Shown: positions 3,387 to 24,217 of the stretch, piece after piece | Position numbering within the stretch: the stretch's first letter is position 1 | How the letters are laid out: each line of letters opens with the position of its first letter | Source of the DNA: a virus | IMG/VR virus record: IMGVR_UViG_3300002461_000302 | Span: 1-34,227 of that record | Length of the DNA stretch: 34,227 bases | Strand: one strand, 5' to 3' | Position numbers and translations under genes: made by a program | Notes under the pieces: model-generated | Database searches by the model: none | What the model saw: only the letters and a program-made list of their open reading frames with translations | Told to the model about the DNA's origin: nothing

Positions 3387-3629
3387 TCAGGCCGCGGCGG
3401 CGGTTTGTTGCGACTGCTGGCCGTCCTGCTGGGCGCGGGCTTTGCGTTTTTCGCGTGCCTCGATCTTGTCCCGCAGCGCCTCGAGCGCGCGGAAGTACGA
3501 AAGCCGGATGTCCTTCGCCTTGCCGCGCTTCAGCTTGCTGATAGTCGCCTGCGGAATCTTGGTTTCTTCTTCAATCTCTTCCTGCGTGTAGGTGCGCAGG
3601 AGGTTGATTACAAGGGCTTGAGCTTCCAT
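3387..3629 (-). CDS. cro: Cro-like HTH regulator (first gene of the early-right operon)
   Basis: 80 aa. HTH segment YTQEEIEEETKIPQATISKLKRG. AAGGAG RBS. Divergent from the CI gene across a 79-bp operator region. Confidence 0.7.
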   Translation of the reverse strand: MEAQALVINLLRTYTQEEIEEETKIPQATISKLKRGKAKDIRLSYFRALEALRDKIEAREKRKARAQQDGQQSQQTAAAA

Positions 3630-3648
3630 GCTGTCGATACTCCTTAAT

Positions 3649-3665
3649 GGATATTCCTTATATCC
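3649..3665. promoter_or_regulatory. 17-bp operator-like inverted repeat GGATAT-N5-ATATCC
   Basis: Perfect 6-5-6 dyad overlapping the -10 of the PR-like promoter. A related 8-bp palindrome, GAATATTC, lies at 3681-3688 and recurs at 4860-4867. Confidence 0.6.
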
Positions 3666-3690
3666 TACACAAGCGCAAAAGAATATTCAA
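3662..3690 (-). promoter_or_regulatory. PR-like sigma70 promoter for the cro-like operon
   Basis: On the minus strand: TTGAAT (3690-3685), a 17-nt spacer, then TAGGAT (3667-3662). The AAGGAG RBS and ATG at 3629 lie downstream. Confidence 0.55.
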
Positions 3691-3708
3691 GTGCGGGACA
3701 CTCGAAAC

Positions 3709-4347
3709 ATGCCGAATCTCGCAAAAAGATTGAAATTTGCACGCCAGCAGGCGGGCATGACCCAAAAGCAACTGGCCGACGCTGCCGTCATGCGCCAGAG
3801 TGATATTTCCAAAATCGAAAATGGAGACATCCAGCGGACTACGTACATAGGCCAGCTGTCCCGGGCGCTTGGGTGTGATCCGATCTGGCTTGAGACTGGC
3901 GACGGCGCGCTGGTGAAGGGTGCGCACCTCGAGCCCGGGCCGGTGCTAAGCGGGAGGATCCCGCTTATTTCCTGGGTACAGGCCGGCGCATGGTCGGGCG
4001 CACAGGATCCGCTGGCGCCTGGTGATGCAGAGGCATGGCTGGCCAGCCCGGCAACCCCTACGCCTGGAGCGTTTGCCCTGCGGGTGCGCGGTGACAGCAT
4101 GACGGCTGCCGGCGTGGGCAAGTCCTACCCGGAGGGGTCAATAATTTTTGTGAATCCTGAACGTCGGGCGCCGGTCAACGGTGAACGAGTCATCGCCAAG
4201 CTGGACGGCTCGGACGAGGTGACATTCAAGGTTTACAAAAACGAGGACGGGCGCCAATGGCTGCAGCCTCTGAACCCGGCGCATTTGCCGATCCGTGATG
4301 AATTCAGGGTGCTGGGCACCGTTTTTGGAAAGTGGGAACCCGAATGA
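3709..4347 (+). CDS. cI: CI-type repressor: N-terminal XRE-family HTH plus C-terminal S24 (LexA-like) autopeptidase
   Basis: 212 aa from the ATG at 3709. HTH MTQKQLADAAVMRQSDISKIENG. S24 Ser/Lys dyad context RVRGDSM ... RVIAKL. The track ORF start at 3628 would overlap cro and the operators. Confidence 0.9.
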   Translation: MPNLAKRLKFARQQAGMTQKQLADAAVMRQSDISKIENGDIQRTTYIGQLSRALGCDPIWLETGDGALVKGAHLEPGPVLSGRIPLISWVQAGAWSGAQDPLAPGDAEAWLASPATPTPGAFALRVRGDSMTAAGVGKSYPEGSIIFVNPERRAPVNGERVIAKLDGSDEVTFKVYKNEDGRQWLQPLNPAHLPIRDEFRVLGTVFGKWEPE

Positions 4348-4882: not shown

Positions 4883-4921
4883 GGACACAAGGCCCGGGTG
4901 TTCTGGGCAGGAGAAAGCAAG

Positions 4922-5518
4922 ATGTCCAGAGACTATATTTCATGCGCCGACACTGCCGCGCTGATTCGCAAATCCCTCAAAGAATCCTTTCCCGGTATCA
5001 AGTTTTCGGTGCGCTCCAGCACCTATAGCGGCGGCGCCTCCATTAATGTGCGCTGGACCGATGGCCCCAATGCCGCCCAGGTCGAGGCGGTGGCCGATGT
5101 GTTCAGCGGCTCCTACTTCGACGGCCAGACCGATTACAAGGGTAGCACTTATGCCCTGATGGATGGCAAGCAAGTCCGCTTTGGTGCTGACTTCATTTTC
5201 TGCAATCGGTCTTTCAGTGATGCCGCTGTCCAGCGTGCCATCGATCAAGTGTCCCGCGCCTTCGCTGGCAACTTCGCCGAAAAAAATATTCCTGTCCCCA
5301 CTGTGGCGCAGTACCGCAGCGGCGAACTATACCGCGCCCAGATCATGGACAACGGCAGCGATTACTGGAGCCTGCAGAGCCTTATCAGCCGGGCGATGGG
5401 CAAGGCCTCCGACCGGCTGGCGGTGGCCAAGTCGCTGACCGCCGGCAAGGTCATTTATCTGGGCAATGACGGTTACAGCCAAGTCGGCGCCCTGTCCCCT
5501 GCACTGGTGGAGGCCTGA
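4922..5518 (+). CDS. Conserved phage/conjugative-element protein (LPD29-like domain resemblance), first gene of the early-left operon
   Basis: 198 aa from the ATG at 4922 with an AGGAGA RBS. The motifs FPGIKFSVRS and INVRWTDGP resemble a domain I recall from large polyvalent proteins. Recollection only. Confidence 0.55.
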   Translation: MSRDYISCADTAALIRKSLKESFPGIKFSVRSSTYSGGASINVRWTDGPNAAQVEAVADVFSGSYFDGQTDYKGSTYALMDGKQVRFGADFIFCNRSFSDAAVQRAIDQVSRAFAGNFAEKNIPVPTVAQYRSGELYRAQIMDNGSDYWSLQSLISRAMGKASDRLAVAKSLTAGKVIYLGNDGYSQVGALSPALVEA

Positions 5519-5696: not shown

Positions 5697-6371
5697 ATGC
5701 TGAAAATTGACAATCAAACCATGCTCCGGCCGGGCTCGCCTGCGGCCACGTCCGTGGTTTTCAATGCGACTCACGACATTGAAAACTTGTGTTCCGCCAT
5801 GCTGGACCAAGCCAATGAACTGGACACCAGCCTGGACGCACAAGGACCGGCCGCCCTGCTGCGCGCCATGGTGATGCGGGTCCAGGCGCTGAACTCGGTC
5901 ATCATGAGCTACACCGACGGCGACGACATCACGCTGGCCGCCGGGTTCCGTGAGTTGTACGGCCGCGAAGTGGGGGACCGGTGCCTTGTCGCTGCGCAGG
6001 CCGACCAGGAGGCCATGCGCGAAACCATGTTCATGGAGGGTATGGCGCTGGCGGCGGACTTCTGGGCCGCGGCCGGGGATGTGGACGCGGATGCCTGCGA
6101 GTTGGCGGCCAAGTATCGCAAGCGCGGTCAGCCCCAAAACAATTTTGCCTTGTCGAATGTCATGCAGCTACTCGAGCGCCCGGCGCTGGCGGAAGGCTTT
6201 GCGGCCGTGCTGTCCAACATTGCAGCCGTCAATGGTCAGGTCGATCCCGCAGAGTTTGCCCGGCTGACCTATGCGCAGATCCAGGCAGCACCTCCCAAGC
6301 CCGCCCGCAGCGCGAAGCGCGCCCCCGCGGAAGCCATCACCGCCCGCGCCCAGATCCTCGAAACCGTCTGA
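5697..6371 (+). CDS. Hypothetical early-left protein (224 aa, acidic, helical-looking)
   Basis: CAGGAG RBS and protein-like composition. The opposing frames are Arg/His/Gly-rich shadows. Confidence 0.65.
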   Translation: MLKIDNQTMLRPGSPAATSVVFNATHDIENLCSAMLDQANELDTSLDAQGPAALLRAMVMRVQALNSVIMSYTDGDDITLAAGFRELYGREVGDRCLVAAQADQEAMRETMFMEGMALAADFWAAAGDVDADACELAAKYRKRGQPQNNFALSNVMQLLERPALAEGFAAVLSNIAAVNGQVDPAEFARLTYAQIQAAPPKPARSAKRAPAEAITARAQILETV

Positions 6372-6377
6372 ACCGCC

Positions 6378-6704
6378 ATGTCACAAACAACAAACAAAAA
6401 ATCCACCGCCAGGGCGCCCCAGACAGCGCAGGCGCTGCGCGGGGTGGGCATCTGCAACAGGCTGGCATCTATCGAGACAAGCCACAAACAGGCTGTAGTG
6501 GACCTGCTGCGCGGCCTGCTTCAGTACGCGGAACAGCCCGGCGCTGATGTCCGGTCGATTTTCTTTGCCCTCCAGGAAGGCCCGAACGGCTTCCGGACCG
6601 GCGTTACCGGGCACTACCGGAGCCGCCCTATCGATGCCCTGCCCGCCATGGAAGCCCTGCGCCGCAAGTTGCGCTGGGAATTGTGCTTCACCGAATTGGC
6701 CTGA
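6378..6704 (+). CDS. Hypothetical early-left protein (108 aa)
   Basis: ORF in the operon. Its start region GCCATGTCACAAACAAC nearly repeats that of the next gene. Confidence 0.55.
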   Translation: MSQTTNKKSTARAPQTAQALRGVGICNRLASIETSHKQAVVDLLRGLLQYAEQPGADVRSIFFALQEGPNGFRTGVTGHYRSRPIDALPAMEALRRKLRWELCFTELA

Positions 6705-6737
6705 GTGCCGCCCCTCAAAACCTGAAAGGAATCTGCC

Positions 6738-7514
6738 ATGTCACAAGCAACCCTTGAGCGCCCAGCCGCCACAAAGCCAGCGGGCAAAAGAAACAGCCCC
6801 GCCGCCGATCCGCGCGGGAAAATGATTTTTCAACTGTCGGAGCTGCTGGCTGGCATCGTCGCCATGGTCGAGGACGAAATGGGGGATTGTGTGGGCCGCG
6901 TGCTGGAAGTTGCCGGCGGTTACGTGCGCCGTGCGCTGGGCGAATTTGTGGAAAGTGACTCGGACACCAGTTACCACACCATGCTGGACGCGGACAGTTT
7001 CATCCAGGCGGCCGGCGCGCTGGTGGCGCAGGAGTACAACGTCAGCAGCAAGGGCCACAAGGGGCGCACCAATGCCGCGGAAACGCTGGTTATGCAGTCT
7101 GACGCCATTGTCAACGCCATGGACCAGCGGCTGACCGACATTACCGGCGGCAAGGTGGCGGCCATCGCAGAGCCGGACGAAGTGGCGGCGCCCGCAGGGG
7201 CTGACCCTGCAGCAGAGCCTGACGCGCCCGGGGTATTCCTGACCACAGAGGCGGCGCACCTGGTCAGCAATTGCACTTACCAGATTGAAACCCTGATTTT
7301 GATAATGCAGGACATGGCCCGCCGCGCCGATGACGACACCACGGGCGTGAATTTGCCCATCGTCGTGCAGGCCTTGGGGGTCCGCATCGAACAGCTGAAC
7401 CAGTGCATCACGGACACGGTTTACCCCAGCCCCAACGGTCCCAGCCTTGCGGACGTGCGGGACAAAGCACAAGGACAGGCGCCGCGCTTGATGCAGATCA
7501 AACAAGCCGCGTAA
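6738..7514 (+). CDS. Hypothetical early-left protein (258 aa, acidic)
   Basis: AAAGGA RBS and balanced composition. The equally long antisense ORF 6741-7523 looks like a shadow frame. Confidence 0.65.
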   Translation: MSQATLERPAATKPAGKRNSPAADPRGKMIFQLSELLAGIVAMVEDEMGDCVGRVLEVAGGYVRRALGEFVESDSDTSYHTMLDADSFIQAAGALVAQEYNVSSKGHKGRTNAAETLVMQSDAIVNAMDQRLTDITGGKVAAIAEPDEVAAPAGADPAAEPDAPGVFLTTEAAHLVSNCTYQIETLILIMQDMARRADDDTTGVNLPIVVQALGVRIEQLNQCITDTVYPSPNGPSLADVRDKAQGQAPRLMQIKQAA

Positions 7515-7606
7515 ATACTTCACGAAAGCCGGCGGGGGAAACCCTTGTAAGGGCGATCACGTAGATAGAAACACTTTCGCCTTAATCCAAAGGGCGGCCT
7601 ACCGTA

Positions 7607-7638
7607 CAGACGGAAGCCGCACCAGACGGTAAGCGCAC
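7607..7638. repeat. Tandem 16-bp direct repeat in the 157-bp intergenic region upstream of 7672
   Basis: CAGACGGAAGCCGCAC (7607-7622) is followed directly by CAGACGGTAAGCGCAC (7623-7638), 13/16 identical. The palindrome AAAACGTTTT and T-runs follow. Confidence 0.7.
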
Positions 7639-7671
7639 ATTTTTGCAAAACGTTTTTTTCAGGGATTCACT

Positions 7672-8262
7672 ATGTCAGCCACTGCAACAACATCAAAGCA
7701 GCCAGCCAGCACCCCCGCACTTGAGTGCAGGCAATTCCCTTTCCATACCGTTTATGAGGGCTCCGCCCAGCAGCTGGTGGCCTTCGGCGTTCTGCCGGAT
7801 GGGTACAAATTCCCGGCGCGCGGCAAGGACCATAAATTCATCGCCGGTAACGGGTTTGAATACACCGTTGACCGGGACTGGCACACTCCGATCTATACCG
7901 TATTTGTGGGCATCCCGGACTCCGCCCTTTTCCCGGCCCAGGTGCTGGCCGTTATCAAGGGGATTCACCGCCTGTTTCTGTCCCTACCTGGGGAGCCCCT
8001 GCAGCTGGTCAACGTGCAGCGCGGCGATAGCGACAAGATAGAAAACCTGCGGCTCACCATCACCGGCCCGCGCGTTAGCCGCGGCACAGTCTTCTACTCG
8101 CTGGCCTCCGTCATGGAGCTGTACGCGCAGGAGGAAATTCTGGCCTCTGGCACGGTCAAGAGCCCGGCCGGCTACCTGCACTCGCTGCCCTCCCCGATCG
8201 CTGCGCCTGCGGCCCGCCCAGCCCTGCGGCGCGCCCTTCCCCGGCTTCTCGCTGCCGCCTGA
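7672..8262 (+). CDS. Hypothetical protein (196 aa) upstream of xis
   Basis: ORF with an AGGGA 6 nt upstream. Its stop overlaps the xis-like start (TGATG). Confidence 0.6.
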   Translation: MSATATTSKQPASTPALECRQFPFHTVYEGSAQQLVAFGVLPDGYKFPARGKDHKFIAGNGFEYTVDRDWHTPIYTVFVGIPDSALFPAQVLAVIKGIHRLFLSLPGEPLQLVNVQRGDSDKIENLRLTITGPRVSRGTVFYSLASVMELYAQEEILASGTVKSPAGYLHSLPSPIAAPAARPALRRALPRLLAAA

Positions 8263-8657
8263 TGTCACACCCAGCAACCAGGCGCGGCCTGCCCTACGCG
8301 GAGGCCATGGCATACGTTGGCGTCAAGCGGCGGACCTTCGATGAAAAATGGCGTCCGCGCCTGGTCGGCATCCCGCAAGGGGTCAGCCTGATTTTTGACG
8401 TTCAGGATCTGGACCGGCTTTTCGAGGAATTCAAAACCCAGGCGGCCGGCGGGCCTGCTGCCAATGACCATGCACCGATGGCGCACAATGGCCCCCGGAA
8501 CGGTCGGCCCGCACAAAAGAAAGGTAGTAAACCATGGGCCAAAACACACGGGGAATCCTCCCCGACAAGGACGGTTGGCAGGTCGATAAATGGAAGTGGA
8601 AAAAGCGCTTTCGACAGCGCGGTTTCCGCAGTTTTGCCGAAGCGGAGGGCTGGCTAA
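8262..8657 (+). CDS. xis: Excisionase-like small DNA-binding protein
   Basis: The N-terminal 60 aa (LPYAEAMAYVGVKRRTFDEKW...IFDVQDLDRLFE) resemble the excisionase/AlpA-type HTH. Lies immediately upstream of int. The low-complexity tail overlaps int by 124 nt in another frame. Confidence 0.5.
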   Translation: MSHPATRRGLPYAEAMAYVGVKRRTFDEKWRPRLVGIPQGVSLIFDVQDLDRLFEEFKTQAAGGPAANDHAPMAHNGPRNGRPAQKKGSKPWAKTHGESSPTRTVGRSINGSGKSAFDSAVSAVLPKRRAG

Positions 8658-9712
8658 TTCAGGAGCTCGAGGCCCACCAAAAGGTGGCGCTGCTGGGTGC
8701 CCGGGTTATCCGGACTTTTGACGATGCAGCCGCCCACTATCTGCGCACCAACCCGGACAAGCCTTCACTGGTAACGGAGGCGTATTTGCTGAAATCGATC
8801 ATGCCCTTTATTGGTCCCCTCGAGCTCCACCAGGTCCACGACAGCACGCTGGCGCCGTACATCACGGCACGGCTGGCAGAGGGTCGCGCGCACAAAACCA
8901 TAAATCTGGCGCTGGGCGTGGTCCGTCGAATCCTGAACTTGGCCAGCACGGCATGGCGGGACGATGACGGGCGGACGTGGCTGGATAAGGCGGCGGCAAT
9001 CACCATGCTGCCCCTGGTCGGCCACCAGCGGGAACCTCGGCCAATTACCTGGGCCCAGCAGCGGCTGCTGCTGCCGCGGCTGCCGGACCACTTGGCGCGC
9101 ATGTCCTTGTTCATCCTGAACAGCGGCGTGCGTGATGATGTGGCCTGCAGCCTGCGCTGGGATTGGGAGATAAAAATCCCGGAGCTGGGGTGTTCGGTGT
9201 TCGAGGTGCCACGGGCGCACGTCAAGGGGCGGCGCCGCGTGCGGATCGTGGTTTGCAACAGCGTGGCGCAGTCGGTCATTGATGCGGCCCGGGGACATCA
9301 TCCGGAATTCGTTTTCGTCTATCGCAGGGAACGGGTCAAGAACCTGGACCAGGCGCCGGCTATGGCTTACCAGCCGATTGCCAGGATGAACAACAGCGGA
9401 TGGCGCACCGGCCGCACGGCGGCGGGCCTGGGTGATTTGCACGTTCACGATCTGCGGCACACGGTAGGGATGCGCCTGCGGGAAGCCGGCATTGCAGACG
9501 GCACGATTGCCGATCTGCTTTGGCACAGCACGCCCTCTATGACGCACCACTACAGCGTGGCGCAGATTGTGGAACTGCACAGCGCCCTGGAGAAAATCAA
9601 GGCGGACAGCGGCGCTTGGAATAAGAGCCTGCACACGTTGAGGCTCGAACAATCGGGGATGCCGGCGGCGGCCACTCCCCCAAAAGTCCCCGCGGAAAGA
9701 AAAATAGCCTAG
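8534..9712 (+). CDS. int: Tyrosine recombinase (phage integrase)
   Basis: 392 aa. Catalytic signature visible: SGVRDDV (Arg), HVHDLRHT (HxxR), MTHHYS (Tyr). N-terminal arm-binding-like segment GILPDKDGWQVDKW...FRSFAEAEGWL. Adjacent to attP. Confidence 0.9.
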   Translation: MGQNTRGILPDKDGWQVDKWKWKKRFRQRGFRSFAEAEGWLIQELEAHQKVALLGARVIRTFDDAAAHYLRTNPDKPSLVTEAYLLKSIMPFIGPLELHQVHDSTLAPYITARLAEGRAHKTINLALGVVRRILNLASTAWRDDDGRTWLDKAAAITMLPLVGHQREPRPITWAQQRLLLPRLPDHLARMSLFILNSGVRDDVACSLRWDWEIKIPELGCSVFEVPRAHVKGRRRVRIVVCNSVAQSVIDAARGHHPEFVFVYRRERVKNLDQAPAMAYQPIARMNNSGWRTGRTAAGLGDLHVHDLRHTVGMRLREAGIADGTIADLLWHSTPSMTHHYSVAQIVELHSALEKIKADSGAWNKSLHTLRLEQSGMPAAATPPKVPAERKIA

Positions 9713-11691: not shown

Positions 11692-12071
11692 CGGTGGATG
11701 CCATCGGGGTGTTTGGTGTCGTACCACTTGAGGTAGTCGTTCTGAATTTTTGCGCAGCGGTCAAACCGCTTTCCGCTGCCGGCCGCGGCATGCCTGTTCA
11801 GGCGGGCGGTGACAATCCACTCCTTTGGCAGCTCCCACAGGTAAATGGTCATCCACACCACGTTGACGATCACGTCAAACACATAGCCGCGCAGCAGCAT
11901 GTAAGTGCCCAAAATCGTGGCGGGCTTTGTCAGACCCTGCCCGGGCAAGTCGCGCACACGGGCCAGGTTCATCAAAGCCCAAAAGTGTTCGATCAAACTC
12001 CACGGCGCAGTAAGCACCAGCAGCGTGAACAGGAACAGCTCGATCCAGAGGGTGAATTCAAGAATGCTCAT
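11688..12071 (-). CDS. Membrane protein of unknown function (127 aa) preceding the holin
   Basis: Trimmed to the ATG at 12071 (ATGA overlap). N-terminal TM (FTLWIELFLFTLLVLTAPW) and a second hydrophobic segment. Confidence 0.5.
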   Translation of the reverse strand: MSILEFTLWIELFLFTLLVLTAPWSLIEHFWALMNLARVRDLPGQGLTKPATILGTYMLLRGYVFDVIVNVVWMTIYLWELPKEWIVTARLNRHAAAGSGKRFDRCAKIQNDYLKWYDTKHPDGIHR

Positions 12072-12445
12072 GGTTCGTCCTCGATGTTTTCGATTGCGGT
12101 TTCCGCGTCCTTGCACTCGCGGTAGGTCTTGTTTCGGGCATACAGGCCCATGATGGCCAGCTGGAGGGTTACGCTGTACTGTGTTGCGAGCATGGGCGCG
12201 GCCACCATTTCAGCGAACTGGATTACCTGCTGGATCAGCGTGCGGTCCTTGCCCTTTCCCGTGGTGGCCAGGACGTGGGCGATGCGTTCGGCTTTCGTCT
12301 GCGGACGAGGCGCCCAGACCGCGCCGGTCCATGTGTCATCGCCTGCGGCTGGTGCCGGGGTTTCGATGGCGCCATTTGGCGGCGTCGCCCCATCGAAGGC
12401 GCCCAGATAGATGCCGTCCGGACTAGCGTAGTGCTTGGCGGTCAT
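12068..12445 (-). CDS. Possible tail fiber assembly/chaperone-like protein (125 aa)
   Basis: Trimmed to the ATG at 12445 (ATGA overlap with the fiber stop). Position and an N-terminal YASPDGIYLGAFDG...P pattern are reminiscent of Tfa-type proteins. Weak. Confidence 0.4.
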   Translation of the reverse strand: MTAKHYASPDGIYLGAFDGATPPNGAIETPAPAAGDDTWTGAVWAPRPQTKAERIAHVLATTGKGKDRTLIQQVIQFAEMVAAPMLATQYSVTLQLAIMGLYARNKTYRECKDAETAIENIEDEP

Positions 12446-15711: not shown

Positions 15712-18252
15712 TCAGTTCGCTCCTATGGCTTGCTCAAAATCCGGCGCGCGCTCCGGGAAGGCGTCCGCAGGATCCCACCAATACCCTTGCCCCCAATCCT
15801 TTTGAGCGCGCTGCTTCATGCGGGCCAGGTAGCCCGGATTCAGCGCCTCTTGCGCGCTGAACAAAAACCAATGTTCGTATGCGCTGCGGGTCCACCACAA
15901 ATTGCTGTAGGGCAGTTGCGAATTTGTCCAGCGCAGCGCCTCCGCGCCGATGTGGGTGTCTTTGCCTTTGGCCGCCTCCCAGGCATTGCCGACAATCAAG
16001 TCTCCGGCCAGGCCCGCCACGGCGCCGGCTGATGGGCCCAGCACCGTGCCGACAACCTGCTCGGTTTTGTTGCCGCGCTGCTCGGTCGGATCCTTGAAAA
16101 GCAGGTCCCCCAGGTAGCCGGCGCCGCCGCCCTGGGTGAATGCGCGCATCCAGAATTTGGCCTCGGTCATGTCGTAGGGGTCCTTCCCCTGCACCAATGC
16201 CTTGTTTTGCAGGACCATCCCGCCGATCATGGTCAGCGTCAAATTCAGCGCAGCCAGCACCGCCACCTTGTTGAACGTGCCGCCTGCCGCGGTTTCAGCC
16301 CCGAACCCGGCTGGTGCACCCTCGAGCCCCTGCGGCGTGTCCAGCACGCGGCGCCAGTGCCTGGTGAGCATGGCAATGGGGAAGCTCTTGAACTGCGCAA
16401 ATGAGCGCCACAGTTCGCCGTCTATCGTGCCAGCGGGCCGTCCGCCGCCGGTGACAATCGCGCGGGTGGCCACGTCAGGATTGACCACGGCAAAATTTGC
16501 CTCGTCCAGCGTGAAGCCCAGCACCTTGGTGGCTACCTGGGCGGCATCGGGTGCGCCGGTGGCCTTGATGCTTTCCGGGGTCAGGAACTGCCGGCCCTGG
16601 AAGTCGGTCAGCTGCGCCTGGTTGACCACGGACCAATCGGCCTCCGTCAGCCCTTTCCGCTCCAAAAGGTGGCGGTCCCATGCGGTCAGGTCGCCCCACT
16701 TTTTGGCGGACATCTTGCCCAGGCCGCCCATCAGCGTCATGGAAAACGCATTGCGCAGGCCATCGGTCCAGGCGTTCATCAGGGACAGCTTCATCACGGA
16801 CCCGGCAACCCGGCCGGTCAGGCTGTGCGTCATGTTGTCGCCGGTCCAGCGGTTCAGTGTTGATGTCAGGGATTCGCCGATGATGCCGTGAGACTGCAGG
16901 AATTCGCGCGTGTCGCCGTCGAACTGCTTGCCGATGTTGCGCAGCATGTCGAAGTACGGCAGCTTGTTGTAATGCAGGGTAGCCGCAATGGTGCCCATGT
17001 CCGTGGTGCTGGTCAGCACGGCGCCGCCCAGCTTGGCGGCCGTCTGGATGTTGCGCAGGTCCTGCCCCACCTGGGACAGCAGCAGATTTTCCGGGGTGGC
17101 AGCCTTGCCGCTGACAACATTCCAGTAGGCCTCTGCAGTGGTTCCCGCCAGGCGCTGGTCCTTGATGCCGGCAAACCCGCCCAGATCGTCGGCGCGCTGG
17201 CCCACGTCGAGCTGCACGCGGTATTGCTGTTCAGGGTTGGGCCCGTAGCGCTCCACCAGGCCAATGTCCCGCGCCATCCGTCCGACGTGTCCGACCATGG
17301 CGTCGTACAGCGAACCCTCCCCGAACTGGTTCATGTAGTCCATCCATGAATCGCCGTCCTTGAAGTGCAGGACCCGGGCTTCACTGCCGCGGTTCGCTCG
17401 GGCGCCGGTGCCGCGGTAGGCGCCGGGCTCTACCTTGTTCAGCCCACCGGTGGCCAGCGTGTCGTGCGCGCCGCGTAGCAGGTCCAGCATTTCCGCATCG
17501 TTCAGGAGCTGGCCGTCTGGTTTGACATATTGCTCCCGGTCCAGCAGTGGCAGCACCTTCGCCGACCAGTCGGCCGCGCCAGCGTCCCGGACCTTCGCGG
17601 CATCGTGCGCCTGGGACAGGTAGCCGTAGCCCAGCTTTCCGACATCGCCGCCCGCAGCATTGAAGCGCAGGCGCATGGCTTCGATGGTGGACAGCCAGGC
17701 TTTCGCGCCGGCCTGGGCAATCTTGTTGCCGGTGTTGCCGGCGCCGTTGGCAAACACTTCGCGCACCACGTCCGCCGTCATGGCGGGGTTATCCACGTCA
17801 AACATGCGCATGGCCAGGTTCCGCATGGCGCCGGTGCCGTCGCGCGATTGCGCCGCGTCGATCATGTCACCCAGGCCGGCAATGGATTCATTCCTGACGC
17901 CATCGATGTACTGGCCCGTTTGCTCGATGTCGCGGATGAACCCCTGCGAGCGTGTCAGGTCGGACAGGTCCATCGCCTTTTTGATACGGGTATCGGTTTC
18001 ACCGGTGCGCAGGACTTGCAGGGTTTCCCGGTATTCTTTCAGCTCTGCTTGCTGCACCACGTCCTTGGTGGCGGCCGTGACTGCCTCAATCATCCGTTGA
18101 TCTTTGGAAAGGCCCAGCCAGCGCTGGCGGTCGGTCCTTGCCAGGTCCCGCATCTTGCCTACAATGGCACCTTCAATTGCGGCCAGCTTGGCATCGCTGA
18201 TTGACCGGCCGGCTGCAGCTGCGCGAACTGCGGCGATACATTTGGGATCCAT
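15712..18252 (-). CDS. Large virion-associated / ejection protein of unknown function (846 aa)
   Basis: Follows the gp16-position gene. C-terminal hydrophobic and Gly-rich segments (VAVLAALNLTLTMIGGMVL; GGGAGYLGDLLF; GPSAGAVAGLAGDLIVG). No enzymatic motif recognised. Confidence 0.55.
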   Translation of the reverse strand: MDPKCIAAVRAAAAGRSISDAKLAAIEGAIVGKMRDLARTDRQRWLGLSKDQRMIEAVTAATKDVVQQAELKEYRETLQVLRTGETDTRIKKAMDLSDLTRSQGFIRDIEQTGQYIDGVRNESIAGLGDMIDAAQSRDGTGAMRNLAMRMFDVDNPAMTADVVREVFANGAGNTGNKIAQAGAKAWLSTIEAMRLRFNAAGGDVGKLGYGYLSQAHDAAKVRDAGAADWSAKVLPLLDREQYVKPDGQLLNDAEMLDLLRGAHDTLATGGLNKVEPGAYRGTGARANRGSEARVLHFKDGDSWMDYMNQFGEGSLYDAMVGHVGRMARDIGLVERYGPNPEQQYRVQLDVGQRADDLGGFAGIKDQRLAGTTAEAYWNVVSGKAATPENLLLSQVGQDLRNIQTAAKLGGAVLTSTTDMGTIAATLHYNKLPYFDMLRNIGKQFDGDTREFLQSHGIIGESLTSTLNRWTGDNMTHSLTGRVAGSVMKLSLMNAWTDGLRNAFSMTLMGGLGKMSAKKWGDLTAWDRHLLERKGLTEADWSVVNQAQLTDFQGRQFLTPESIKATGAPDAAQVATKVLGFTLDEANFAVVNPDVATRAIVTGGGRPAGTIDGELWRSFAQFKSFPIAMLTRHWRRVLDTPQGLEGAPAGFGAETAAGGTFNKVAVLAALNLTLTMIGGMVLQNKALVQGKDPYDMTEAKFWMRAFTQGGGAGYLGDLLFKDPTEQRGNKTEQVVGTVLGPSAGAVAGLAGDLIVGNAWEAAKGKDTHIGAEALRWTNSQLPYSNLWWTRSAYEHWFLFSAQEALNPGYLARMKQRAQKDWGQGYWWDPADAFPERAPDFEQAIGAN

Positions 18253-18451
18253 GCTTAAAGTCCTTGAATTTCTGGTTTACCTTGCGGCCATGTTGGGCGG
18301 GGTTGTCCTGTTCGGCGCTGCCGTTCTTGGGAGCTGGAAAAACGGCGTCCGATACGCCGGGCAATGGTGCAAATACGTCCTCGGGCTGGCGTGTGTGGGC
18401 TCCATGCTGGGCTGGTCCTTCGTGCAGTTCATGCCCCTGCCCCCAGCGTAA
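18251..18451 (+). CDS. Candidate antisense moron: 66-aa protein with two TM helices
   Basis: The ATG shares the CATG with the start of the 846-aa gene on the other strand. The ORF exactly fills the 176-bp gap and ends 23 nt inside the 1014-aa gene. TM1 is FLVYLAAMLGGVVLFGAAVLG and TM2 is YVLGLACVGSMLGWSFVQF. Minus-strand frames in the gap do not look coding. Confidence 0.35.
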   Translation: MLKVLEFLVYLAAMLGGVVLFGAAVLGSWKNGVRYAGQWCKYVLGLACVGSMLGWSFVQFMPLPPA

Positions 18452-21400
18452 GCGCGCAATTTGCCGCCACCTCCAGCAGGTCGGCATCCCGGGCGCCCAG
18501 CTCCGTATCGGTGCCTTCCAAGGATTCGCGGCGGATCCGGTCCATTTCCTGCCTGACTGTCACGTCATTGCCCTGGGCGTCCTTGCCGACAACCATGTCC
18601 GGCGCGATGCGCTCCAGTTCAGCCACACGGCCCAGCACGGAACGGGTCAGCGGGTCCTTGTGCACCGGGGGCAGGTCATTGCCGAAAAGGCTGTTTTCTG
18701 GCAAAATCGGAGGTATGGACATGAAACTTCCTCCACTGCTGCCGGAATCCTTCCCGCCGGGCACAGTGTTTGCCGATGTGGAAGGCGTACCGGTAAGCAG
18801 ATCCCCCGATTGGGTTTGCACCGCTTGGGACAAAGTAGAGCCCCGCAGGTTCCCGGCCAAGTCGTTTGTTGACAATGGCGGCGTGCTGCCAGAGGACAAA
18901 TTCCGCGCGCTGGTGATGTCGTCCCACGCTGCCGTATAGATTTCTTTCTGCCGGGTTTCCAACTCGGTCAAGCGCGCAGCCTCATCTGGCGTAGGCGCGC
19001 GGTTCTCCCCCTCGATTTTCCGCAGTAGCGTATCGCTTTCAACGTACAGCGGGTGCGCGTCATGCTTGGCGGCCATCATTTCCGCCAGGTTGATTTGCAC
19101 CTCTGCCGTGTGCCCGTCGATCCGCACGTTCATTTTGACATCGCGGTATCCGTTCGGGTTTGTCGTCGGCTCTGTCAGGCCGTTGCGGAATCCCCCCTCC
19201 AGTACCTCGAAGCGCGCGCGCAGTTCGGCCAGCGCCTGCTCCACGTCCTGCAGCGACTTGACCACTACAGTACCCCGCACCAGGTCCTTTATGCGGGTGG
19301 CGTCCCCTTCATAGTCGGCCGCGATTTTTGCAGCAGCCCGGTCGGCCCCCTTGAGTTTGGCCAGCTTGAGCTGCGCGCCCAGGCGGTCGGCTACTTCCAT
19401 CAATCGGCCATCAAAAACCGGCTTCACCGCGCCGGCCTGCTCGTACATGCGGGCCAGCCCCGGCTCCATCGTCATGCCTTCGGGCGCCTTGAGAGGGGTC
19501 AGCCCCAGCTCGTCCCGGATCTGCGCCACGCGGTCCGCGTTCGTGCTCCAGTTGTCCCATGCCGCGCGCTCGGTTTGCAGCTCGGTGATGCGGCGCTGCA
19601 GGGCCTCGGGGTCCTTGATGTTGACGCCCTCGCGTTTTGCCAGCTCCGGCCGTTTTGACGCGCCCTGGACGGCCGCCAGGCTTTCGCCCAGCTCGCGCTG
19701 CTTGCGGCTGACCAGCGCGGCCATGCGGCCGGCTTCCTTCATGGCACTGTCATCAAAGCCGAACATATCGCCCGTGGTGTCGGCGCGTTCGCCCATCATG
19801 CTGCGGACGGCGTGCATGGTGTTGACGGCCTGGGTGATGGGCTTGCCGTCCTGCAGCGCCTGCTGGCCTACGGCTTGTAGGCGTCCGTCCCCGGGGGCAG
19901 CTCGGGCAATGGCCACGGCTGCATCATCGGAGAGCTGGCCGGCACGATGGGCGGCAATGAGGTCAGGTCCGCCATCAGCTGCGAGCGCGTAAGCCCGCTG
20001 TCCTGTTGAGCGCGCCAAAAGTCCGCGTGATTCTGCTTCGGCGCGGGTGAGTCCTGTTCCTTGAAAATACTGTACATAGTCGCCTACCTTTCCTTGTCCG
20101 TCGCGGATGTTGAGCTCGGCATCCAGCGCCGCCGCGCGCGCCGCTGTGAAACCGTCGGCCTCTCGGTGCACCTGGGCGGGGATGGTGGCCTCCCCGCTGC
20201 GGATCGCCAGGTCCCTGCGGTGGCGGCCGGAAATAACCTCGAGGCTGCCGTCCAGGCGCTCCCACACCTGAATGGGGGCCACGCCGGTGCGGTCGAATGT
20301 CCCGCCCAGGGGCTCCACCACGCCCTGAACATCGGCGCCGCCCTTGAATTGCGGCACGTCAGCGGACAATTTCAGCCCTGCCAGCGGCACCTCCACGACA
20401 GCCAGGTCCGTTTGAAACTGGTTCGGGTCGCGCGGCTGCGGCCCCCGGAGAATGGCCGCGGCCTCCCGTGGCGCGGTGGCTTCGCGCACGTCCTGCGCGA
20501 GCGTCAGGTTATGCGTCATGACTGCATCGGCCTGGTCAGGCGTCAGGCCGGCGCGTGCCGGCGCTTGTGCCTCACCGGTGACAGGCAAAGCGGTTTGTGC
20601 GCCAGATTCTGGTGAAAGTGGGACGCTACCGTCTGCTACCGGTTTGATAGCTGCTTGCGCACGACTGGCGCGGGCTGCACCGTGCATTGCATATGCGGCG
20701 AAGCCAGCAGGCACCAGGGAAGATACAGCCAGCCCCACCGGGTCCAGCGGGTCATAAGCCTCTGCCAAGTCCTTGTAATTCGCCTCCCGGAGAATGGACC
20801 GTGTGGCGGCCTGCTGCGCCACAAAGGCACCAGGCCCACCGGCCGCCCAGAGCCCGGCGGTCGCCAGGTAGGAGCCAGGCGCGGCCACCGGCAGCAGCAC
20901 GCCAGTAGTTGCCGCGGCACCGGTCAGCATGCCGACCTTTGTCCGGGTGGTCTTGTCCACGCCCTGCTGGCCCAGATCGTCGGCAGCCTTCATGCCTTCA
21001 TCGGCGCCCAGCATCACGGCGCCAGGCACGCCACCGCCGGCAACCGTGTAGCCCACGGCCTTGGTCATAAAGCGGGTCAGGTCATACGTCAGGCGCTCGG
21101 CCGTGCTTGCCGTGGCGGGGTCTGGCCGGTAGTTCAGTTCGACATTGCGGAAAGACCGGCCCAGGTTTGAAACCGTGTCCACGCCATCAGCCGCGATGCT
21201 GGCGCGCTGCTTTTCTGTCTCGCGCTGCTCTGTGTCGTTCGGGATGGAAAACATACCCCCGGCGCTGGCCGTGCCAGTCGCCGCCATCGTCTGGCCGTAG
21301 CCCTTGACGGAATCAGCCACAAAGGCGGCAGTCTCGCTGACGCCACCAGCCACGGCGCGCAATGGAGCGCTCCAGCCGTTCCACTTTGCAACCGGCTTTG

Positions 21401-21473
21401 CGCGCTCCGGCGGCATTGTGGCCAGGTTGTCGAGCGCCGCGTCCGTGTCGTTTTGGTACAGGTCGCCCAGCAT
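18429..21473 (-). CDS. Internal virion (gp16-position) polyvalent protein. N-terminal membrane-active region, ParB-like nuclease domain, RelA/SpoT-like nucleotidyltransferase domain.
   Basis: 1014 aa. ParB N-domain motif APIQVWERLDGSLEVISGRHRRDLAIRSGEATIPAQV (aa ~398-435). RelA/SpoT synthetase-like motifs KLKGADRAAAKI, IKDLVRGTVVV, NPNGYRDVKMNV, AEVQINL and HPLYVE (aa ~705-812). Gly/Ala-rich hydrophobic N-terminus. Confidence 0.8.
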   Translation of the reverse strand: MLGDLYQNDTDAALDNLATMPPERAKPVAKWNGWSAPLRAVAGGVSETAAFVADSVKGYGQTMAATGTASAGGMFSIPNDTEQRETEKQRASIAADGVDTVSNLGRSFRNVELNYRPDPATASTAERLTYDLTRFMTKAVGYTVAGGGVPGAVMLGADEGMKAADDLGQQGVDKTTRTKVGMLTGAAATTGVLLPVAAPGSYLATAGLWAAGGPGAFVAQQAATRSILREANYKDLAEAYDPLDPVGLAVSSLVPAGFAAYAMHGAARASRAQAAIKPVADGSVPLSPESGAQTALPVTGEAQAPARAGLTPDQADAVMTHNLTLAQDVREATAPREAAAILRGPQPRDPNQFQTDLAVVEVPLAGLKLSADVPQFKGGADVQGVVEPLGGTFDRTGVAPIQVWERLDGSLEVISGRHRRDLAIRSGEATIPAQVHREADGFTAARAAALDAELNIRDGQGKVGDYVQYFQGTGLTRAEAESRGLLARSTGQRAYALAADGGPDLIAAHRAGQLSDDAAVAIARAAPGDGRLQAVGQQALQDGKPITQAVNTMHAVRSMMGERADTTGDMFGFDDSAMKEAGRMAALVSRKQRELGESLAAVQGASKRPELAKREGVNIKDPEALQRRITELQTERAAWDNWSTNADRVAQIRDELGLTPLKAPEGMTMEPGLARMYEQAGAVKPVFDGRLMEVADRLGAQLKLAKLKGADRAAAKIAADYEGDATRIKDLVRGTVVVKSLQDVEQALAELRARFEVLEGGFRNGLTEPTTNPNGYRDVKMNVRIDGHTAEVQINLAEMMAAKHDAHPLYVESDTLLRKIEGENRAPTPDEAARLTELETRQKEIYTAAWDDITSARNLSSGSTPPLSTNDLAGNLRGSTLSQAVQTQSGDLLTGTPSTSANTVPGGKDSGSSGGSFMSIPPILPENSLFGNDLPPVHKDPLTRSVLGRVAELERIAPDMVVGKDAQGNDVTVRQEMDRIRRESLEGTDTELGARDADLLEVAANCALTLGAGA

Positions 21474-23591
21474 TTATTGCGCTCCGATGGTGATACGGCG
21501 TTTGCCATCGGCGGACATCACCGGGCGGCCGTTGACCATGACATTGAATTTCCCCGGACCGGCATAGGACAGTTCGGCGCCGGGTAGGCTTTTGACAAAC
21601 TGGTCCACCGGCACCGGCACGCCCGCGGCGCGGACAAACTGGTCGGCCGGCTTAGCACCTGGGCCAGCCGCCTGCAGCGCAATATCTGCCGGGCTGATGG
21701 TTTTCAAACGCTTGTCCAGCGTGTCCTCGTCCATGCCCGCAGGAAGGGGCAGGCGCTTGCCGTTGCGCTCGATGATGGTGCCGCCCACCGCCAGCCGCAC
21801 CGCGCGCTGCATGTCGCTTTCTGACAGCTTGCCGCCGTTTTCTGCGGCCATCCCGTGCGCGATGTACAGCGCCGCGTCCCTCACGCCCTCGGTCAGCTGC
21901 TGGGATGGGAAAAGCCCCTCAGTTTCGGCAGTCATGACCCGCTTCCACTGGCTGGCTGTCACGTCCGCCTTTGCCGCGTTCTTGGTGCTGGTGCCGTCCT
22001 TCTGCGCCGCTGCGCCTTTCAGGATCAATTCCGACACAAAGCGGCCTTCGGTGGTCTGGGCGCCGGCTGTGCCAAAGGCCAGCCCCAGCGCGCGGTCCTT
22101 TTCGTTCAGCTGGCGGGCCATGCCGGCGGCGGCCTGCGGGCCCATCGTTGTGGCCAGGGTGGCAATGGCTGCGCTTTTTTCCTTGGGCGCCAGGTTGTCC
22201 AGGATCCGGCGGACGGGCTCGATTTCTTCGGCGGTCAGTGGCGCCACGGGTCCACCGCTCCACTGCCGTGCACGTTCCGCAATGGGCGCGCGCTCCGCCA
22301 GGCTCTTGGTGATGCCTGCAATTGAGCTGGTATCCAGCGGCTTGAAGTCGGCGGCATCGGCGCTGCGCTCCAGGTAGGCGCGCATGGGGTCCCTATCGAT
22401 GTCGGTTTTTGACCCGTTCACGACTTTTTCGATCTGTTCGCGGCGGCGCTGCAGCGCGGGAGAGTTTCCTTCCCTTGCAATCTGCGCCTGCACGGCATCA
22501 AGCGCGGCGCGCTGCGCCTGCACCGGCATGGAAGCCAGGCCGCCGGCCTCCTGCTGCTGCTTGGCCAGCGCCACCACGCCCGCCTGGTACGGCGTGCCGG
22601 CCGTCTGGCTTATTACCTTGTCGATATAGGCCGGATCCATCGCCAGCCCCTTGTCGCTGACGCTTTGGAAGGTCTGAAAGGTGGCCTCGGCCTTTTTCAG
22701 GCTGGCCTCGGCCTGCCGCGCGGCGCGTGCCGCTTGCATTTCCGCGCGCTGGTCCAGCGAAAACTTGTAGGCGCTGGTGCGGTCCATCAAAACGGCTTTT
22801 TTCTGGGGGTCCAGGCCGTCCATCTTGCTGATTGCCTGCTCCACCGCGTCCAGCTGGCCGCGATTGTTGCGCGCGCCGCTGACCATTTCGTAAGCGCGCG
22901 TGTAATTCACGGTTTCTCGGAAGCCCTGCACCTCTTTTTCCACCTTTTCCGGACTCCAACCGGCCGCCGGGCCCGCTGTGCGCGCTGTCTGCTCCCACTG
23001 CTTGGTGGCGGCCTCGATGTCGGTGCCTGCAAAACGCTGCATTGATTCTTTGTAGCCCAGCAGCCCCGCATCCGCTTCCTGCTGATCGCGTTTTCGGATG
23101 GTGTCCTCGAGACGGTTGTTCAGTTGCCCGTTGAGCCCCTGCATTTGTGCAGTCACCAGCGGCGCCAGGTCGGCGGGCAAAGCCTGCGTTTTCTCGGTCA
23201 GGACCTTAGCGCTGCCCTCTGTCCACAGTTTGCGTGCATCGTCCTTTTTGATCGCGCCGGTGGACAGCTTGGAAGTGATGTCATCGTTCAGGTCAGCCAG
23301 GCCGGTCTGAATCCCCGCGTGTGCGGTCAGCTGCTGGATTTGCTCGGCCCGCGCCGCCTGCTTTTGGGCCTCCTGCTTTTTCTCGGCCTCTACTTTCAGC
23401 CGCGCGCGTTCGATTTCGGCCAGCCCATTGTCGGCAATGGCGGACGCGGTGCCACCCAGGCGCATCCCTGCAGCCCCCAGCCCGCCGTCGTCAACCGGGC
23501 GGGCCGATGCTATCGGCGTAAGCGATGGCGTTTGAGTGCGCGCCGTTTGCGGAACCAGCTGACCGCCGTCCCCCATTGGAATTTTTGCCAT
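21474..23591 (-). CDS. Internal virion protein (T7 gp15-like position and size)
   Basis: 705 aa. Long helical Ala/Gln/Lys-rich protein between the gp14-like and gp16-position genes. Confidence 0.55.
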   Translation of the reverse strand: MAKIPMGDGGQLVPQTARTQTPSLTPIASARPVDDGGLGAAGMRLGGTASAIADNGLAEIERARLKVEAEKKQEAQKQAARAEQIQQLTAHAGIQTGLADLNDDITSKLSTGAIKKDDARKLWTEGSAKVLTEKTQALPADLAPLVTAQMQGLNGQLNNRLEDTIRKRDQQEADAGLLGYKESMQRFAGTDIEAATKQWEQTARTAGPAAGWSPEKVEKEVQGFRETVNYTRAYEMVSGARNNRGQLDAVEQAISKMDGLDPQKKAVLMDRTSAYKFSLDQRAEMQAARAARQAEASLKKAEATFQTFQSVSDKGLAMDPAYIDKVISQTAGTPYQAGVVALAKQQQEAGGLASMPVQAQRAALDAVQAQIAREGNSPALQRRREQIEKVVNGSKTDIDRDPMRAYLERSADAADFKPLDTSSIAGITKSLAERAPIAERARQWSGGPVAPLTAEEIEPVRRILDNLAPKEKSAAIATLATTMGPQAAAGMARQLNEKDRALGLAFGTAGAQTTEGRFVSELILKGAAAQKDGTSTKNAAKADVTASQWKRVMTAETEGLFPSQQLTEGVRDAALYIAHGMAAENGGKLSESDMQRAVRLAVGGTIIERNGKRLPLPAGMDEDTLDKRLKTISPADIALQAAGPGAKPADQFVRAAGVPVPVDQFVKSLPGAELSYAGPGKFNVMVNGRPVMSADGKRRITIGAQ

Positions 23592-24217
23592 CAGTCACCA
23601 CTCCCTAGATTGCCGGTTGTGTAGCGCGACAGCGGGTTCGCGGCCGTCGAGGACCAGCCGCCGTATGCCTGGGATCCGAACTTGAGCGCAGAGCCTGCCG
23701 CAGTCACATAGCCCGCGGCTTTTGCGTTCTTGCCGGACGCCTGGGCGGCGGCGCCGTTCTGCCGCGCGTTGGCTGCGGCGGTGTCGGCTGATATGGATGC
23801 GCCCTGACCCTGGGCGATGATCTGGCGCGCCCGGGTGTTGCCGGACAGGATCGTCGTGAGTGCGTCGTTTTCCCCGTCGCGCATGATTTCAAAGTTGATA
23901 AGTTCGGCTGTGCCGTCGCTGACCGATGTCCCGCTGGCCGCGGTGGCCGCCACTGCTGCAGAGCGCTGGCGCTTGGTGGCCTTCCGGATCTGGTCCGCCT
24001 GCAGCGCCGCCTCACCTTGGGCGGTGGCAGCATCGGCTTCGGCCTGGGCTTTCTGATAGTTGCCGATGGCGATAGACTGCTGCGCCTGGTTCTCGTTGAC
24101 GGCCGCAATGCGGTTGCCCTCGGCCTCGGCCTGCTTGCCCTGCTGGACGGCGCTGTAAGCGGTGGTAGCTGCGCCGGCCGCTGCCAGCCCCAGCATGATC
24201 GTGGTCGGTTCGCACAT
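23591..24217 (-). CDS. Internal virion protein (T7 gp14-like)
   Basis: 208 aa. N-terminal hydrophobic segment (TTIMLGLAAAGAATTAY), then an Ala/Gln-rich helix. Size and position match gp14. Confidence 0.55.
   Translation of the reverse strand: MCEPTTIMLGLAAAGAATTAYSAVQQGKQAEAEGNRIAAVNENQAQQSIAIGNYQKAQAEADAATAQGEAALQADQIRKATKRQRSAAVAATAASGTSVSDGTAELINFEIMRDGENDALTTILSGNTRARQIIAQGQGASISADTAAANARQNGAAAQASGKNAKAAGYVTAAGSALKFGSQAYGGWSSTAANPLSRYTTGNLGSGD

Follow-up and report, generated by a model that had tools for sequence, protein, structure and literature searches.

Tas1 (Apk1) of Pseudomonas aeruginosa is a (p)ppApp synthetase and type VI secretion system (T6SS) effector with a solved structure (6OX6), and is a very fast ATP-depleting enzyme (PMC10083569). 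Temperate phages (Bacteroides caccae, S. pneumoniae and M. haemolytica) encode the Apk2 toxins, which are fused to MuF, such that a head-associated carrier bears a C-terminal RelA/SpoT homolog (RSH) toxin whose co-injection is presumed; characterization of these MuF-Apk2 toxins in 2023–2025 showed that they make (p)ppApp and are neutralized by IapK/Tis1 and Aph1 (PMC10083569, PMC12226406). Whether phage RSH toxins of this type are carried in the virion and injected was stated as an open question (PMC10083569). Iyer et al. (2017) described RelA/SpoT as a phage-type polyvalent domain, also found fused to MuF, and proposed an alarmone-like response on phage entry; acquisitions of RelA/SpoT are reported there for prophages of Spirochaetes and epsilon-Proteobacteria, and the terms 'T7-like', 'internal virion' and 'gp16' are absent from the text (PMC5512222). 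The ejection proteins of the internal virion block leave the virion to build a trans-envelope channel; a review of these proteins (PMC8954989) reports peptidoglycan-degrading activities as the only ones found on them, and does not contain the words 'toxin', 'effector' or 'ADP-ribosyl'. Here we analyze a 34,227-nucleotide stretch of viral DNA (IMG/VR record IMGVR_UViG_3300002461_000302; "the window" denotes this entire stretch) and within it the gene for a 1014-residue multidomain, or "polyvalent", internal-virion/ejection protein (18429..21473, minus strand; the target), delimited by its open reading frame (ORF) and by orthologues. We propose, with a probability of roughly 55%, that the target is a modular ejection protein of a temperate podovirus that delivers an RSH cargo of the Tas1/Apk lineage, with (p)ppApp as the most likely product.

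A first-pass annotation, made from the sequence alone, had suggested a RelA/SpoT-like synthetase fold at positions 19014–19451, over which the single long ORF is that of the target, on the minus strand; the interval encodes residues 675–820. Database comparisons bear this suggestion out. When the whole protein was compared with all PDB sequences (phmmer), the sole match was Tas1 (6OX6; E = 3.1e-11), with residues 656–805 aligned to the Tas1 toxin domain. A family profile was built from alignment A1, in which the window domain and its orthologues are joined by four distant relatives (14 sequences in total). Searched against the PDB, this profile again placed Tas1 first (E = 2.3e-22), followed by 14 RSH synthetases (Rel, RelA, RelQ/YwaC, RelP and SaSAS), 11 of them scoring between E = 3e-5 and 5e-3, with 0.08–0.13 for the two weakest. 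An exported Streptomyces synthetase was also among the profile matches and is the second-best structural match of the RSH model. The AlphaFold2 (AF2) model of residues 640–880 has a mean confidence score (pLDDT) of 81, rising above 90 across the catalytic core, and superposes on solved RSH domains: Foldseek against the PDB returned Tas1 as best match (E = 1.4e-9; template-modelling scores 0.56/0.68; about 24% identity in the structural alignment), and all 50 matches listed are RSH synthetase domains. The Pfam profile PF04607 (RelA_SpoT) matched residues 711–810 at E = 6.1e-5, although its 23.7 bits lie under the 27-bit gathering score, and PF04607 matches are precomputed for an orthologue (P0006) and a relative (P0004). 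By sequence and predicted structure, the region of residues ~665–860 (18894..19481, minus strand) is an RSH synthetase domain whose closest solved relative is Tas1, an enzyme that the first-pass annotation had itself named. The boundaries given there fall inside the domain and were slightly too narrow, since the folded domain spans about residues 665–860 and the exchanged unit about residues 657–937.

The five synthetase motifs quoted in that annotation are all present in the translated minus strand. Syn1 (KLKGADRAAAKI, residues 706–717; 19323..19358) supplies the putative ATP-phosphate-binding pattern K706-x-K708-xxx-R712-xxx-K716 and aligns to IKSRERAMQKI of Tas1. Syn2 (IKDLVRGTVVV, residues 728–738; 19260..19292) contains D730, the predicted Mg2+ ligand, with R733 and T735, and in alignment has the 'DxxRxT' pattern of Apk enzymes (PMC12226406). 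Syn3, the G-loop (NPNGYRDVKMNV, residues 772–783; 19125..19160), holds G775-Y776-R777-D778, in which Y776 is the likely acceptor-base stacking tyrosine; GYRD is invariant in A1. Syn4 (AEVQINL, residues 790–796; 19086..19106) carries the putative catalytic E791-x-Q793-x-N795, aligned to EIQVN of Tas1 and EVQIRT of Rel; the arginine-to-asparagine change that had been pointed out in this motif is common to Tas1 and the target. Syn5 (HPLYVE, residues 807–812; 19038..19055) provides H807-xx-Y810, invariant in A1. Roles in ATP-phosphate binding, Mg2+ coordination, stacking and catalysis were assigned through alignment to Tas1 and Rel and through the description of FaRel2 in PMC11782079. Alignment A1, whose members go down to 29% identity, is without variation at K708, K716, D730, R733, G775-Y776-R777-D778, E791, Q793, K803, H807 and Y810, whereas R712 is kept in at least 90% of its sequences and K706 is variable. 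A further 65 clade members show no change at the positions corresponding to K708, D730, E791 and Q793 and almost none at those corresponding to R712, K716 and Y776, and the catalytic residues are unchanged in orthologues of 56–95% identity. The predicted RSH active site is thus intact in the cargo cassette of an ejection-block protein.

That the domain lies in a cassette is evident from related loci. In locus L007, the flanks are 87–89% identical to the window, and the segment equivalent to window ~18663–19503 (residues ~657–937) is swapped for a 1-kb Zeta-toxin cassette (blastn). In locus L003, encoding protein P0014, window 18672–19508 is entirely missing (blastn), and the remaining structural module is intact. 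Across the homologues, the space between the N-terminal module and the C-terminal tail is occupied by a Zeta toxin (PF06414), ART-PolyVal (PF18760), SLT (PF01464), GGDEF or InPase domain, or by nothing. Because the RSH region is replaced by Zeta in one locus and absent from another at the nucleotide level, it is to be regarded as a single allele among the interchangeable cargo cassettes that the conserved carrier protein can bear; chassis homology and cassette exchange are both apparent in these alignments. The L003 alignment (11936–12311 against window 18288–19508) has flanks of about 84–87% nucleotide identity, and the RSH cassette and a small antisense gene are both gone from it. A cassette that is dispensable for virion function, as in this natural variant, together with a Pfam score under threshold, would suit an RSH domain that is an inactive or structural remnant, or a protein that is unpackaged and whose domain works within the producing cell. 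We find this extremely doubtful, because the invariance of the catalytic residues in orthologues and distant relatives points to purifying selection on activity, and the clade, with 806 clusters at E ≤ 1e-30, is a large one.

BLAST comparison of 120 homologues with the target protein divides it into four parts, all encoded on the minus strand. The N-terminal chassis module (residues 1–340; 20454..21473), defined by PHROG, tblastn and BLASTP matches and a hydrophobicity scan, has hydrophobic segments at residues ~180–210 and ~245–264, is covered by PHROG 1145/14422/11561 over residues 94–278, and is common to ~100 proteins. It is matched by the BcepC6B gp16/KL4/E332 'lytic transglycosylase domain protein' and by Yersinia YeP4-6 (tblastn), as well as by SPN1S_0018 and the 430-residue YeP5 protein (BLASTP). 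A ParB/Noc/KorB-like module follows (residues ~355–660; 19494..20411), with a VISGRHRRDLA box at residues 413–423. This module is 57% identical to parts of 'DNA methylase' polyvalent proteins of Vibrio and Shewanella phages; Noc is a weak profile match, with ISGRHRR as the equivalent of the GERR box, and Noc, ParB and KorB are the best Foldseek matches (E ~3e-5) of its AF2 model (pLDDT 81). The exchangeable cargo cassette (residues ~657–937; 18663..19503), delimited by blastn and the protein module map, contains the RSH domain and a conserved linear tail that is predicted to be disordered (residues 865–900, PPLSTNDLAGNLRGSTLSQA...LTGTPSTS; 18774..18881; motif TGxPS[TS]S; pLDDT <50). The C-terminal chassis tail (residues 935–1014, ...LLEVAANCALTLGAGA; 18432..18671) recurs at the end of nearly all N-module proteins irrespective of the intervening cargo, including E332 gp18, SPN1S_0018 and YeP5. 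Full-length orthologues of 66–91% identity are held on Burkholderiaceae contigs of metagenome-assembled genomes, one of 573 kb, and the location of orthologues within bacterial contigs of up to this size identifies the target as a prophage gene. Two plus-strand ORFs that overlap it, 19053–19658 and 19351–19992, were rejected as high-GC artefacts, all homology residing on the minus-strand ORF. The target protein, its neighbors and the small antisense ORF gave zero NCBIfam matches.

Turning to the genomic setting, the genes on the strand of the target run in the order portal, scaffold, HK97-type capsid, tail tube A and B, a phrog_308 internal virion protein, a gp14-family internal virion protein (23591..24217; PF24072 T7_gp14, E = 3.9e-8; phrog_418), a 705-residue protein in the gp15 position (21474..23591), the target, an 846-residue internal/virion structural protein (15712..18252; phrog_684, E = 6.5e-217), the large terminase and a tail fibre. 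The 705-residue protein is without family matches and has a syntenic counterpart of 684–711 residues in all related loci, and the 846-residue protein is homologous to BcepC6B gp17, to an 824-residue protein of the epsilon15 group and to 'internal virion proteins' of Pelagibacter phages. This gene order is conserved in nine related metagenomic loci, Burkholderia phage vB_E332, Salmonella phage SPN1S (epsilon15 group) and Yersinia phage YeP5. The syntenic gene of vB_E332 encodes the N module with an SLT domain, and the syntenic proteins of SPN1S (600 residues) and YeP5 (430 residues) have the N module and the C-terminal motif. Through this conserved order and the N-module and C-tail homology to syntenic proteins, placement of the target in the ejection-protein block is well supported. 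Elsewhere, the window encodes a LexA/CI-type repressor, a tyrosine integrase and replication genes; judged by these genes and by the orthologues inside bacterial contigs, it is a temperate podovirus or prophage, of the epsilon15/BcepC6B/BPP-1-like type and probably one that lysogenizes Burkholderiales. Megablast of 22 kb of the window against phage genomes gave zero matches, so a close cultured relative is absent. The gp16 position assigned by the first-pass annotation holds insofar as a gp14-family protein precedes the target within the internal-virion block, and is otherwise approximate, since another large internal protein follows; homology to T7 gp16 was not found, the homology that could be demonstrated being to the syntenic protein of BcepC6B-like, YeP5 and epsilon15-like phages. 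Its statement that the protein has no transglycosylase motif agrees with the searches, which found no SLT or gp16 family in the target (Pfam, PHROGs and NCBIfam) and Tas1 as its sole PDB match; homologues on the same chassis do have SLT. Overall, that annotation was essentially right; what it missed was the ParB-like module, the fact that cassettes are exchanged, and the earlier publications (PMC5512222; PMC10083569, PMC12226406).

We infer packaging, ejection and an effector role from the synteny and from the needs of the cargo enzymes. In the proposed sequence of events, the chassis (residues 1–340 and 935–1014) would handle packaging and ejection; the capsid core would hold a few copies of the protein, which would be expelled via the tail before or with the DNA. 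Once in the host cytoplasm, the RSH domain would transfer pyrophosphate from host ATP to a purine nucleotide at its 3'-OH, the acceptors most likely being AMP, ADP or ATP, yielding (p)ppApp, and less likely GDP or GTP. Such action would precede all phage gene expression, and would disturb the energy, purine and alarmone status of the host for takeover or counter-defence. Zeta, ART, GGDEF, ParB and RSH enzymes all require cytoplasmic substrates, and their presence as cargos on this chassis supports the presumed entry of the cargo into the cytoplasm.

Sequence relationships indicate that the reaction is most likely the ATP-dependent 3'-pyrophosphorylation of adenine nucleotides to give (p)ppApp. 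This assignment is favored because, with the A1 profile, Tas1 is far nearer than any (p)ppGpp synthetase, by ~17 orders of magnitude; because R733-G-T735 of Syn2 (RxT) and E-V-Q-I-N of Syn4 (without the arginine) fit the Apk pattern (PMC12226406); and because a relative of the domain in Bordetella phage PHB04 has the layout of an Apk2/IapK/Aph1 locus. The first two of these observations disfavor a different outcome, namely that the injected enzyme emits a (p)ppGpp signalling pulse that induces a stringent-like state—biasing the lysis-lysogeny decision, for example, or halting host transcription and translation—rather than acting as an ATP-depleting toxin. A pulse of this kind is possible, though we consider it somewhat unlikely. 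A non-lethal enzyme would fit the lack of an immunity gene, the phage is temperate (with its CI-like repressor and integrase), the exported Streptomyces synthetase makes both products (PMC12691689), and signalling on entry is exactly the role that Iyer et al. suggested for the RelA/SpoT domains of polyvalent proteins (PMC5512222). Syn3 speaks to both sides of this choice, as it is missing the GxN signature of Apk enzymes and is also without the guanine-recognizing SxH.

It is very improbable that the domain modifies tRNA instead of a nucleotide. CapRel and FaRel2 chains are absent from the PDB sequence matches at E ≤ 1, which favors a nucleotide acceptor, and are likewise absent from the 50 matches that Foldseek listed; Pfam and NCBIfam revealed no antitoxin domain of the pZFD/Panacea type, and the PHB04 relative is linked to a nucleotide hydrolase of the small alarmone hydrolase (SAH) type. 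What keeps tRNA modification in consideration is that Tas1, FaRel2 and CapRel have closely superimposable toxSYNTH cores (PMC11782079), so that the fold alone is not decisive, and that the Syn3 motif is unusual for alarmone synthetases.

Several observations weigh against delivery of a (p)ppApp synthetase by the target. At the level of the enzyme, the PF04607 match falls short of the gathering score, and Syn3 reads Y-R-D-V-K, matching neither the 'GxN' signature of Apk enzymes nor the 'SxH' of (p)ppGpp synthetases, which leaves the acceptor uncertain. An unrestrained enzyme of Tas1 grade, whether produced late in infection or delivered into the phage's own host, would starve phage replication and packaging, so the RSH activity is expected to be attenuated, autoinhibited or different. 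At the level of delivery, the SLT cargo found on the same chassis works in the periplasm, and the topology of the cargo after ejection is therefore unsettled; no homology to T7 gp15 or gp16 was detected (Pfam on the target; phmmer of the 705- and 846-residue neighbors against the PDB); and the architecture of the target occurs in no cultured phage of the collection searched. Finally, in contrast to all characterized Apk1 and Apk2 toxins, no immunity gene of the Tis1/IapK or Aph1/SAH type was found for the target, either beside it or elsewhere in the window. With regard to restraint of the enzyme, the isolated Apk2 domain is more toxic than full-length Apk2 (PMC10083569), and the conserved tail of the RSH cassette is a candidate regulator of RSH activity.

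Searches for an immunity gene covered the window in several ways. The gene directly after the target on its strand encodes the 846-residue virion protein. The small, IapK-position protein of PHB04 and its SAH gave no tblastn match in the window. For 27 small or uncharacterized proteins of the window, no PDB match to Tis1, IapK or Aph1 was found, the sole matches being GGGGS-linker artefacts, and fast-evolving immunity proteins can escape such sequence searches. No antitoxin domain of the pZFD/Panacea type and no antitoxin-type neighbor was detected by Pfam, NCBIfam, tblastn or PDB search. The lack of such a gene raises the question of how the phage avoids self-intoxication.

A small gene lies in the 176-nt gap after the target, antisense to the late operon (18251–18451, plus strand). 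It encodes a 66-residue membrane protein whose two helices are hydrophobic (MLKVLEFLVYLAAMLGG...FVQFMPLPPA); the ATG of the small gene abuts, head to head, that of the 846-residue gene, and its 3' end overlaps the final 23 nt of the target. Substitutions between loci favor third codon positions (e.g. 4/0/13), which argues that it is a real gene. Loci have it whether their cargo is RSH, Zeta or ART or includes no toxin, and L003 alone is without it. A role as an RSH-specific immunity gene was ruled out by its company with Zeta, ART and cargo-less variants; an exclusion or moron function is possible.

This conservation bears on a further alternative, that the target is a polymorphic toxin for interbacterial competition, a role put forward earlier for MuF toxins: non-lysogens would be killed by phage particles or by products of lysis, exclusion would protect lysogens, and the toxin would be of no help to the phage's own infection. 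The polymorphic cassettes with classic toxin domains (Zeta and ART) do resemble polymorphic toxin systems, the phage is temperate, and the conserved small membrane-protein gene could serve as the exclusion factor. We nevertheless judge this alternative unlikely, given that no cognate immunity gene covaries with the cargo—the antisense gene being the same across RSH, Zeta, ART and cargo-less variants—and that the ParB and SLT cargos are not toxins. A broader reading, which we offer tentatively and as a doubtful one, makes the epsilon15/BPP-1-like ejection protein a general polymorphic 'warhead carrier' whose RSH form would release a pulse of (p)ppApp or of a non-canonical nucleotide. RSH, Zeta, ART, GGDEF or SLT cassettes would recombine into a fixed chassis, and a few copies would be injected with the genome. 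A brief, self-limited pulse would then knock out NTP-dependent defences or set the lysis-lysogeny outcome before phage gene expression. The RSH cassette would here be a distinct GYRD/ExQxN clade with its own linear tail and without a cognate immunity gene; lysogens would be shielded by ejectosome exclusion, not by a toxin-specific immunity protein, with the 18251–18451 membrane protein as candidate factor.

Returning to the RSH domain of the proposed ejected synthetase, its clade was charted by an exhaustive profile search over 1.84 billion cluster representatives; an earlier word-indexed search with the domain alone had given just 4 proteins. Besides the 806 clusters at E ≤ 1e-30, the search returned 4147 at E ≤ 1e-10, and the counts that follow use the best 146 new cluster representatives, taken from the 150 matches listed. 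The clade signature GYRD is present in 136/146 and ExQxN in 103/146, and the N chassis in 39/146. In 65 of those without this chassis, co-occurring Pfam domains include ddrB-ParB (11), portal fusions (4), MuF (2), InPase, ART-PolyVal, SLT, LPD22 and others; PAAR and Rhs were not seen among them, and PF04607 reached E ≤ 1e-3 in 13/65. The disordered tail, PLRxxES..N.RG...SQA...ETGxPSTS, recurs in 60/146 representatives ~120 residues past GYRD, with TGxPS[TS]S at 114–131 residues past GYRD in 59 of these 60 and at 153 in the remaining one. The tail motif spans different architectures, including polyvalent proteins of 3000 residues, and is located within the exchanged cassette; it may serve for processing, for docking as a peptide or for autoinhibition. 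The nearest predicted viral structures are polyvalent proteins of ~1000 residues from uncultured phages, annotated as DdrB-like, ART-PolyVal-like or RelA/SpoT. Direct fusion of the clade domain to Phage_portal_3 was observed in 4/65 sampled proteins (P0125–P0270), adding further virion-linked carriers, and RadC, TopoIB, Amidase_2 and InPase were also found beside it in this sample.

The relative in Bordetella phage PHB04 (vB_BbrM_PHB04, MF663786.1) is the C-terminus of a portal-adjacent protein in the MuF position, to which the target domain is 38% identical. The locus (L002 5032–7297) comprises the portal gene, a 493-residue 'hypothetical protein' with the C-terminal RSH domain, a 69-residue gene, and a 192-residue SAH-like gene annotated as 'bifunctional (p)ppGpp synthetase/hydrolase'. 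By this arrangement, the PHB04 locus is apparently an unrecognized Apk2-type operon in a cultured phage.

Compared with the described systems, the target domain is nearest to Tas1 among solved relatives by both sequence and structure, and shares with it Syn1, Syn2 (DLxRxT) and Syn4 (ExQxN, without the arginine). In both proteins, the cargo domain is C-terminal to a delivery module for injection into another cell, as proposed for the target. Tas1 is delivered by PAAR and the T6SS, whereas the target has a phage ejection-protein chassis; its Syn3 is GYSG.N as against GYRD.K in the target, for which no Tis1 immunity gene was found. Apk2 differs in using a MuF carrier rather than a podovirus ejectosome protein and in bearing a terminal toxin domain, in contrast to the internal cassette that precedes the conserved C-terminal tail of the target; the target also adds the ParB-like module, and no IapK/Aph1 was found downstream of it. 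No PAAR or MuF delivery domain was detected in the target (Pfam and PHROGs). Like the polyvalent proteins of Iyer et al. (PMC5512222), the target combines unrelated effector domains, ParB-like and RSH, in one prophage polypeptide and a virion-gene context, and its homologues share in the polyvalent module repertoire (ART-PolyVal, InPase, ddrB-ParB, LPD1/3/22/29, Zeta, GGDEF and SLT); unlike them, its carrier is a betaproteobacterial ejection-protein chassis, which is apparently a further, undescribed carrier of RelA/SpoT.

The target resembles T7 gp16, as well as the ejection proteins syntenic to it in epsilon15-like and BcepC6B-like podoviruses, in its large size, its hydrophobic segments and its place within the internal-virion block, where it comes after one gp14-family protein and one of ~700 residues; SLT, the activity that typifies gp16, is carried by homologues on its chassis. 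It differs in having neither detectable gp16 homology nor SLT, in being followed by an 846-residue internal protein, and in a cargo that would act in the cytoplasm rather than on the cell wall. The toxic small alarmone synthetases (toxSAS: FaRel, FaRel2, CapRel and PhRel/Phrann gp29) share the RSH/toxSYNTH fold and a role in biological conflict. They are, however, small, have their antitoxin fused or next to them, in several cases target tRNA, and act for the cell or prophage against an incoming phage; the target is a 1014-residue multidomain protein of the virion block, for which no significant sequence match to toxSAS was found. On its domain content, the target is a polyvalent protein and lacks two defining features of Apk1/Apk2, a PAAR or MuF carrier and an adjacent immunity gene. 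It may work like an Apk toxin and yet should not be filed as Apk1 or Apk2. What is new here is the ejection-protein carrier, a distinct RSH subclade, the fact that no cognate immunity gene was found, and the sister alleles in which the cassette is swapped for Zeta or missing.

The probable lysogeny side of the window offers further observations. A stand-alone LPD29 protein ('large polyvalent protein associated domain 29', PF18847, E = 2e-26) is encoded at 4898–5518 (plus strand), within a same-strand block that extends from the CI-like repressor (3628–4347) to the integrase (8534–9712); a polyvalent-protein domain is thus present here as a solo gene, one that is probably on the lysogeny side. 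Between it and the integrase lie five successive genes (5697–8657, plus strand) encoding 224, 108, 258, 196 and 131 residues. None has a PDB match, the four that were scanned against Pfam had no match, and the sole PHROG match is that of the 131-residue gene to phrog_13517 (unknown function). If co-transcribed with the repressor, these genes would be candidates for lysogen-expressed defence or immunity.

For this family of phages, the exchange of cassettes means that ejection proteins can behave as polymorphic toxins do, which affects the annotation of prophages and also the safety of phage therapy, since virions may deliver toxins. Ejection into the host is an established function of podovirus ejection proteins, which makes such a protein a better-grounded carrier for this class of RSH enzyme. 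Natural controls exist in the Zeta-carrying sister phages (flanks about 87–89% identical) and in the cassette-less variant, and through these sister alleles the effect of an injected alarmone synthetase on the phage is directly testable. The system is thereby suited to testing whether, and why, phages inject alarmone synthetases.

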